Source: a virus | Taxonomy: Duplodnaviria; Heunggongvirae; Uroviricota; Caudoviricetes | Length of the DNA: 46,232 nt | Virus record (IMG/VR): IMGVR_UViG_2778261384_000001 | Strand: one strand, 5' to 3' | In this document: positions 35,005 through 36,059 of the stretch, in pieces | Numbering within the stretch: position 1 is the first letter of the stretch | Layout: the number at the start of each line of letters is the position of its first letter | Program-made: the position numbers and the translations under genes | Notes under the pieces: generated by a model | Database searches by the model: none | Told to the model about the DNA's origin: nothing | Seen by the model: the letters and a program-made list of their open reading frames with translations, nothing else

Positions 35005-35034
35005 AATAAAAACAAAAACCCGCCGAAGCGGGTT
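35005..35034 (-). terminator. rho-independent terminator downstream of hokD
   Basis: Stem aacccgc/gcgggtt, loop cgaa, then TTTGTTTTTATT on minus strand. Confidence 0.55.
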
Positions 35035-35102
35035 AAGTGCGGGTGCGTTGAGGATGCCTGCCACATCAGAGGTGGCGAGGGATTTCTCCCTCGCCGGGTC
35101 TC

Positions 35103-35258
35103 TTACTCCTCAGGTTCGTAAGCTGTGAAGACAGCGACCTCCGTCTGGCCGGTTCGGATTCGTACCTCGCAGAGGTCTTTCCTCGTTACCAGTGCCGTCA
35201 CTATGACGGTTAAACAGATGACGATCAGGGCGATTAACATCGCCTTTTGCTGCTTCAT
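35103..35258 (-). CDS. hokD: Hok-family type I toxin (51 aa)
   Basis: MKQQKAMLIALIVICLTVIVTALVTRKDLCEVRIRTGQTEVAVFTAYEPEE; AAGGAG RBS; overlapping upstream frame (mok). Confidence 0.85.
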   Translation of the reverse strand: MKQQKAMLIALIVICLTVIVTALVTRKDLCEVRIRTGQTEVAVFTAYEPEE

Positions 35259-35315
35259 AGCCTGCTTCTCCTTGCCTTTCGGCACGTAAGAGGCTAACCT
35301 ACATATGTCTAGCAT
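35103..35315 (-). CDS. mok-like overlapping leader reading frame that couples translation to hok
   Basis: In-frame ATG at 35315 extending over hok as in hok/mok/sok loci. Confidence 0.45.
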   Translation of the reverse strand: MLDICRLASYVPKGKEKQAMKQQKAMLIALIVICLTVIVTALVTRKDLCEVRIRTGQTEVAVFTAYEPEE

Positions 35316-36059
35316 GAAATTGGCCTCAGATTAATGTTAAGCGTCTTGCAGGACGCGTAATGTTAACTGGGGCTTTTCTCTATCTGCCGTTGGTGTTCAT
35401 GCCTGAGGCAGATAGCCTCAAGCACCCGCAGCAATTCTACTTAACTCCCGTCACCTCGCCAATATAAAATCAATCAGAAAGGCGATCCGTAAGAACAACA
35501 GCAAGACAATAAATTGCCATTACAGTCGCAATAGCTAGCGCACATTTGAGAACCAGCACGACAACCTCCTGTATTGGACGTACACCAGTTCTGATAAATA
35601 TGAGGCTGTCTCATCATTGATTCAATATAACTATTGGGTATAGTTTCTGTGATTTTGTTTTGTAGAAATGGAACACAACAACCAGTTACCACCAGCACTT
35701 CTTTAAATACGCCAAGTCCGACGCAAGCTAACCTTCTAGTCCGCTTTGAGTGAGAAGCAGACATTTACTTAACCGGATAGCAAGAGACTTCATACTACAG
35801 CTCATACATCATGGTTGATCCCGGAGTTTTCAGCAATGGAAATTGCCCACATGATCGTACCGTAACCACATTAGAAGCAGGTTCACTTTGTGAATTTTGA
35901 TTGTGTCACCCTATCAGTTTTGAATTTTTATAAAAAATATTCGCAAATTTGTGAATTATGAGAGGCATACGAGCATGGACAACCAATGTTACTTTCATAC
36001 ACAATGAAGCAACATGATAAAAATACACTGACTTTAGTAAGTAAATTTAGGAGATTGCG

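Follow-up and report, generated by a model that had tools for sequence, protein, structure and literature searches.

Sequence evidence for a complete hokD-lineage hok/mok/sok module, a type I toxin-antitoxin system, in a Qin-like prophage of Escherichia coli

The hok/sok locus is a textbook type I toxin-antitoxin system. The mechanism of hok/mok/sok has been established for plasmid R1 (PMC9841398 and PMC1635323). The R1 locus (parB) encodes a Hok/Gef toxin, an in-frame leader open reading frame (mok), and a cis-antisense RNA (Sok) whose promoter overlaps the downstream complementary box (dcb) and the region of the hok ribosome-binding site. Its mRNA is characterized by pairing between the two ends, i.e., between the 5′-terminal translational activator element (tac) and the fold-back inhibitory element (fbi), by a metastable hairpin, an upstream complementary box (ucb), the mok Shine-Dalgarno sequence (SD), dcb, and a 3′ road-block stem; in R1 this 3′ stem-loop blocks 3′ exonucleolytic trimming and ends the truncated, activatable mRNA (PMC1635323 and PMC9841398). 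By sequence, the locus described here has counterparts of all these elements. The two differ in that the toxin sequence has diverged and the nucleotide alignment is patchy, the 5′ hairpin of R1 has a longer loop, and R1 is a plasmid whereas the present locus lies in a chromosomal prophage.

Related loci are present in the chromosome of E. coli K-12. The hokC/mokC/sokC and hokB/mokB/sokB loci have the architecture of the locus described here and can be aligned with it over the whole mRNA; they are paralogous lineages, with ~70% protein identity, their Sok hairpin is without the apical extension described below, and hokC has IS186 just downstream. The K-12 hokD gene (relF of the relBEF operon, Qin prophage) is without its own promoter, tac, ucb, mok start, and Sok target/hairpin, because relBE (relE) occupies the place 5′ of the hok ribosome-binding site. 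The intact, 70-codon form of hokD has been described as ancestral (PMC6379469). In addition, hok has been reported to be enriched in prophages and the HokD peptide to be toxic (bioRxiv 10.1101/2025.08.07.668861).

The present locus occupies positions 35007–35462 on the minus strand of the window, which is the whole stretch of DNA that was analysed (46,232 nucleotides; IMG/VR record IMGVR_UViG_2778261384_000001). Judged by its sequence, it is very likely a type I toxin-antitoxin module with a full set of hok/mok/sok elements; it belongs to the hokD lineage and resides in a Qin-like lambdoid prophage of E. coli. A preliminary description of this DNA had identified a hok/mok/sok locus here, and that identification is supported: the defining sequence features were all found, and most of them are kept in relatives. 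The toxin gene, hokD (35103..35258, minus strand), was recognized from the list of open reading frames, by Pfam, and by the identity of its 51-aa product to K-12 HokD. The overlapping mok frame, also from the list of open reading frames, comprises 70 codons (35103..35315, minus strand; ATG start at 35315); it extends hok in frame at the 5′ side and ends at the hok stop codon, a geometry found equally in the annotated K-12 mokC/hokC and in the R1-type locus, where the end coordinate is shared as well. The Mok/Hok protein matches HOK_GEF (PF01848; E 2.9e-23, 81.6 bits vs. a cut-off of 22). Both reading frames of the preliminary description stand. The hok SD is AAGGAG (35273–35268, minus strand). 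The mok SD, read from the sequence as GAGG (35324..35327, minus strand), lies 8 nt 5′ of the mok ATG and is invariant or nearly so in the 41 aligned loci described below (alignment columns 120–123).

The surroundings of the locus are those of Qin. The gene order cspB, cspF, ydfT, ydfU, rem, hokD is the Qin order of K-12, and the K-12 and window loci share the neighbors rem, ydfU, ydfT, and cspB, with DicF downstream. They also share the hokD coding sequence, the 3′ stem, fbi, and the terminator; nucleotide identity to K-12 begins 14 nt 5′ of the hok ATG and continues past the terminator, interrupted by a single G/A difference within the 3′ stem. In contrast to K-12 hokD, the window locus has its own promoter, tac, ucb, mok start, and Sok target/hairpin. 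Among 5426 complete E. coli genomes, 4275 have an intact hokD leader (median 2 copies) and 1173 have the relE-hokD junction. The 491 bp at 34990–35480 recur with 100% identity in 14 or more complete E. coli chromosomes; examples of strains with the locus are E. coli 2014C-4587 and H10. Across this 491-bp locus, the hokD coding sequence is the sole annotated feature in the identical RefSeq E. coli genomes; annotation of mok, Sok, and the structured leader was absent in all genomes sampled, as automatic annotation marks the hokD coding sequence only. The FRG gene (36060–37394, plus strand) is the next annotated gene; the preliminary description had called the locus directly adjacent to this moron, which is true of annotated genes, but ~295 nt of widely shared sequence (35470–35765) separate the locus from the rare FRG cargo. 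A PADLOC scan of HokD and of the small neighboring open reading frames at 35474–35764 and 34290–34568 returned zero matches, and a literature search for "sokD" returned unrelated matches only.

The hok/mok mRNA has a candidate promoter at 35434..35462 (minus strand), with a −35 element TTGGCG (35462–35457), a 17-nt spacer, and a −10 element TAGAAT (35439–35434) that together match 9 of 12 positions in a consensus scan; the −10 element is kept as TAnAAT/TAnnAT in the alignment of relatives. Transcription would start at about G35427, the position at which the Rfam model match discussed below also begins. At the other end, a terminator scan detected an intrinsic terminator (35007..35034, minus strand) that consists of the hairpin AACCCGC-UUCG-GCGGGUU (35034–35017) followed by a U-run. 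When the resulting 418-nt transcript is folded, its ends pair: in the MFE fold, nt 1–12, which are tac (GGGUGCUUGAGG; 35416..35427, minus strand), pair with nt 375–387, which are fbi (the AUCCUCAACGCACCC region; 35041..35053, minus strand), with a z of −7.3. This long-range helix, whose strands lie 375 nt apart, was found equally by a search for inverted repeats, in which 35422–35430 are complementary to 35038–35046 (9/9) and 35404–35421 to 35048–35065, as well as in the alignment and by RNAalifold; it is 91% paired in the 41 loci, with a change from U-A to C-G in 9 of them. The preliminary description, which had asked for such a prediction of the full transcript, attributed a fold-back architecture to two 9-bp repeats that it took to be long-range. 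The fold-back is indeed present, as tac/fbi end pairing that was not listed there; the two cited repeats do not constitute it, and both are short-range local hairpins.

As local hairpins, the two 9-bp repeats were recovered exactly where they had been described. The 5′ leader hairpin, identified by inverted-repeat search beside tac, is formed by CTATCTGCC/GGCAGATAG (CUAUCUGCC...GGCAGAUAG; 35380–35388 with 35407–35415, minus strand); its fold has an energy of −14.7 kcal/mol (z −5.4 vs. shuffled sequence), and it is kept in relatives, being 94.8% paired in the 41 loci, with two-sided changes (A-U to U-A or G-C) at three pairs. The 3′ road-block stem-loop is formed by GGCGAGGGA/TCCCTCGCC (35074–35082 with 35087–35095, minus strand; 9/9 complementary, 4-nt loop), with a folding energy of −18.2 kcal/mol (z −6.7 vs. 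shuffled sequence), and is 96.1% paired in the 41 loci, in which four pairs show two-sided, compensatory changes. By analogy with R1, processing would be expected to leave a truncated hok mRNA (~355 nt) that ends at this stem (35074–35095). A further inverted repeat of 10 nt (90% complementary) constitutes the putative metastable 5′ hairpin (35400..35424, minus strand), in which UGCUUGAGGC (35424–35415) pairs with GCCUCAGGCA (35409–35400); it is 95.9% paired in the 41 loci.

The mok SD has two complementary boxes as potential partners. In the closed fold, i.e., the MFE fold of the full-length mRNA, the SD pairs with ucb (GCCCC; 35369..35373, minus strand), which is near-invariant (alignment columns 74–78). 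The alternative partner is dcb (GCCUC; 35290..35294, minus strand), pairing of which with the SD was detected by RNAalifold (columns 120–125 with 156–160) and is 99.5% paired in the 41 loci. Complementarity between tac and ucb is also present and 98.2% conserved. Since the elements of SD/ucb, SD/dcb, and tac/ucb are almost invariant, these three pairings are supported by conservation, not by covariation. Forcing the tac/ucb pairing costs +13.2 kcal/mol in the full-length mRNA vs. +4.5 kcal/mol above the MFE in the truncated mRNA; the MFE fold of the truncated mRNA is without the tac/ucb refold, as is that of the R1-type control.

For comparison across species, one genome per species was scanned, which yielded 61 related loci, and 41 distinct loci from eight genera were aligned. 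By nhmmer, DNA homology covers almost the entire mRNA in Escherichia, Shigella, Kluyvera, Pseudocitrobacter, Citrobacter, Erwinia, Pantoea, Kalamiella, and Photorhabdus. The four main helices (tac/fbi, 5′ hairpin, ucb/SD-Sok hairpin, and 3′ stem) have 91.9% of cells paired in the 41 loci, vs. 41–46% when the partners are slid by 1–3 columns, and two-sided changes occur at 17 pairs (83 cells), a result matched by none of 500 shuffles. RNAalifold, to which no structure was supplied, recovers tac/fbi, the 5′ hairpin, SD/dcb, and the 3′ stem. A single tac position, column 22, carries U in 30 loci and C in ~10, and it covaries both with its fbi partner, column 422 (UA in 30 loci, CG in 9), and with its partner in the metastable hairpin, column 46 (UA in 30, CG in 10); coupled covariation of this kind has been described for the hok mRNA family (Gultyaev/Franch/Gerdes, cited in PMC9841398 and PMC1635323). 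What is shown directly for the window locus are its sequence elements, the pairings predicted for them, and the way in which these are conserved and covary in relatives. The preliminary description had named two things that would speak against a hok/mok/sok locus, the lack of a conserved leader structure among hok homologs and the lack of a Sok-like RNA; both the structure and the RNA are detectable, the latter as a homology-based prediction.

The predicted Sok antisense RNA (~77 nt) lies at 35307..35383 on the plus strand and was located by alignment with the annotated sokC and sokB. In K-12, sokC (59 nt) and sokB (57 nt) are annotated opposite hok and overlap the mok start; when the antisense strands are aligned, G35307 shares a column with the annotated 5′ ends of both, and the 3′ end of sokC aligns with 35383. 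Both proposed ends are projections from these annotations. The strand and the position across the mok start are those anticipated by the preliminary description, with a range that is better given as ~35307–35383 than as ~35290–35360. The predicted RNA consists of a 5′ tail of ~15 nt over the mok start codon (35313–35315), a long hairpin at ~35322–35374, and a U-rich tail (CUUUUCUCUAU); the 77-nt candidate folds at −30.5 kcal/mol (z −6.1), with the architecture of SokC. Its length reflects a conserved GC-rich apical extension of 16–18 nt (~35341–35358) in the ucb/SD stem-Sok terminator hairpin, which characterizes the hokD lineage; 16 of the 41 loci in the alignment have it. As a result of this extension, the predicted Sok is unusually long (~77 nt vs. 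64 nt in R1, according to PMC1635323), and the closed state would be more stable.

A promoter for Sok is proposed, by homology, at 35272..35300 (plus strand), with a −35 element TTGCCT (35272–35277), a 17-nt spacer, and a −10 element TAACCT (35295–35300). The plus-strand promoter search suggested in the preliminary description came back empty when performed as a simple consensus scan, because only 7 of 12 positions match the consensus. The geometry of the candidate promoter nevertheless matches that of the R1-type locus (TTGCGC-17-TATCCT) and of the regions upstream of K-12 sokB and sokC, and most relatives keep it as TTGCC/TTGACC-17-TAAnCT.

A covariance-model search for Sok, also suggested in the preliminary description, gave a strong match, but on the hok sense strand: Rfam RF01794 ("sok antitoxin") matches 35427–35253 (minus strand) over the full model (1–157), with 114.3 bits vs. 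a gathering score of 59 and an E of 2e-25. Taken at its word, this reported minus-strand match would place the antitoxin RNA on the minus strand at 35253–35427, which is scarcely credible. In K-12, the RF01794 matches likewise lie on the hok sense strand, antisense to the annotated sokC and sokB, an annotation by which a minus-strand Sok was ruled out; the model spans the hok mRNA from +1 to the hok AUG and so represents not Sok but the hok leader, which holds the Sok target. Read literally, the match, which lies opposite the real antitoxin strand, therefore misplaces Sok; it is good evidence for the locus and does not delimit Sok. The gene might instead have been the last of an upstream operon, as in K-12 relBEF, and without antisense control. 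K-12 hokD lies 71 nt 3′ of relE and is co-transcribed, and in the window a same-strand 96-codon open reading frame ends 12 nt 5′ of the hok −35 element. However, that frame is without a family match and unannotated in RefSeq, relBE is absent from the window, homology to K-12 starts no further than 14 nt 5′ of the hok ATG, and upstream of that point comes a complete hok leader, promoter included. Such an arrangement is highly improbable here and was rejected, as the full leader stands where K-12 has relE.

A more serious alternative, although still rather unlikely, is that the locus looks intact yet is biologically silent, a hitch-hiking relic that neither kills nor stabilizes. The native chromosomal hokA, hokB, and hokC are reported to be inactive in killing assays, with no post-segregational killing and no activation by rifampicin (Pedersen and Gerdes, 1999, as summarised in bioRxiv 10.1101/2025.08.07.668861); the proposed −10 element of Sok is weak, and decay is visible in some relatives (the 5′ end of L014; L050 and L064). 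Against this, no inactivating lesion was found in the window locus, in which promoters, start codons, ribosome-binding sites, open reading frame, and pairing elements are all intact; the compensatory changes across genera point to selection on the RNA structures; 4275 of the 5426 E. coli genomes have the leader; and toxicity of the HokD peptide has been reported (bioRxiv 10.1101/2025.08.07.668861).

If the locus is an active hok/mok/sok module, its mode of action can be mapped from R1. The mok-hok mRNA (~418 nt) would be transcribed from ~35427 to ~35010 on the minus strand, and tac would be sequestered by the metastable 5′ hairpin while transcription proceeds. In the full-length mRNA, tac would pair with fbi near the 3′ end and ucb would lock the mok ribosome-binding site, so that the mRNA would be stable, untranslatable, and closed to Sok. 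Slow 3′ exonucleolytic trimming to the road-block stem (35074–35095) would strip off fbi; the 5′ region would then refold and the mok start region would open. Translation of mok would drive that of hok, and the 51-aa membrane peptide would damage the membrane and kill the cell, unless the short-lived Sok pairs with the mok start region by way of its 5′ tail and the resulting duplex is destroyed, in which case killing would be averted. The processing, refolding, and RNase III cleavage in this scheme, together with the ends and the activity of the Sok transcript, are those to be expected if the locus behaves as R1 does.

By itself the finding matters little, as the intact hokD form is already known and the enrichment in prophages has also been published. 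Its use is practical: automatic annotation labels the hokD coding sequence and leaves out mok, Sok, and the leader, a literal Rfam "sok" match puts Sok on the wrong strand, and the reference strain K-12 carries a derived, relBE-truncated hokD, the intact form being the commoner one. The locus adjoins a variable cargo slot of Qin-like prophages, which is occupied here by an FRG/PDC-S15 defence candidate, in K-12 by relBE, and in strain N31 by other genes. One could imagine that Sok turnover or the kinetics of activation are altered in this hok/sok variant, and that it anchors the neighboring defence cargo through addiction or abortive infection, a proposal that we consider improbable. Elsewhere in the window, Rfam models also match two cspA-type leaders, DicF, and IS009.

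The hairpin that is common to the ucb/SD stem of the hok mRNA and the terminator of the proposed antisense RNA Sok carries in the hokD lineage a GC-rich apical extension of 16–18 nt (GCGUCCUGCAAGACGC; window ~35341–35358, columns 86–105 of alignment A2). This extension is present in 16 of the 41 aligned hok loci, comprising the hokD lineage and some loci of Kluyvera and Pseudocitrobacter, whereas the hokC, hokB, R1, Photorhabdus and Pantoea types are without it. Complete hok loci also occur in tandem pairs, separated by ~60–190 nt, in Pseudocitrobacter faecalis and Photorhabdus temperata (L051, 322–779 and 840–1295; L030, 895–1331 and 1524–1942).

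RF01794, named "sok antitoxin (CssrC)" in Rfam, is a model of the sense-strand leader of hok mRNA and matches the window at 35253–35427 on the minus strand; in K-12 its matches (L003, 402–554; L004, 567–718) lie on the strand opposite to annotated sokC and sokB, and annotation pipelines that copy the strand of the match would therefore misplace the antitoxin. Within the hokD coding sequence, the Tyr codon of the penultimate region, Tyr47, reads UAC followed by G (UACGAA; 35118–35120 on the minus strand, context GCUUACGAACC), a context that, judged by its sequence, resembles the tRNA-Arg anticodon loop. A-to-I editing by TadA is reported to recode the corresponding Tyr as Cys in the mRNAs of hokC, hokD and hokE (2026 preprint, bioRxiv 10.1101/2025.08.07.668861).

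Directly upstream of the hok promoter, a segment of ~295 nt (35470–35765) is common to ~1500 E. coli genomes and is unannotated. It coincides with a Cys-rich ORF of 96 codons (35474–35764, minus strand), for which no match was found in Pfam or PADLOC, and contains a terminator-like site at 35535–35516 on the minus strand. Beyond it lies a slot, bounded by the hokD locus on one side and the DUF977/YdaT genes of the replication region on the other, in which the gene content of Qin-like prophages varies: FRG/PDC-S15 in the window (~35766–37600), relBE-ydfV-flxA in K-12 (L002, 4347–6000), and two hypothetical proteins in strain N31 (L067, 2907–4886), which have GNAT and HEPN/RES-NTD matches at sub-threshold level only. 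The occupant of the slot in the window is a plus-strand gene for an FRG-domain protein (36060–37394, flanks 35766–37400; Pfam PF08867, E = 2.8e-22), which matches PDC-S15, a candidate defence family in PADLOC (E = 6.7e-99). The gene has a GC content of 33–39%, vs. ~50% in the flanks, and the segment is rare, with 41 carriers among the 5426 complete E. coli genomes. The FRG gene looks like rare candidate anti-phage cargo, and the slot is possibly a hotspot for cargo or defence, with hok/sok at its flank.

The other Rfam matches in the window are IS009 (3342–3540, minus strand; 227 bits), two cspA-type thermoregulator leaders (28411–28796 and 31307–31699, both minus strand), which belong to the prophage cspB and cspF/cspI-like genes, and DicF (41427–41478, plus strand; 72.5 bits); all fit a Qin-like prophage, as expected. 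Near-identical E. coli-type hokD loci were also found on five short contigs (L009, L013, L041, L053 and L058) labeled as a Veillonella parvula MAG, Xanthomonas pisi, Acinetobacter idrijaensis, Candidatus Scatousia and a Haemophilus MAG; these most likely reflect contamination with Escherichia DNA or mis-binning.
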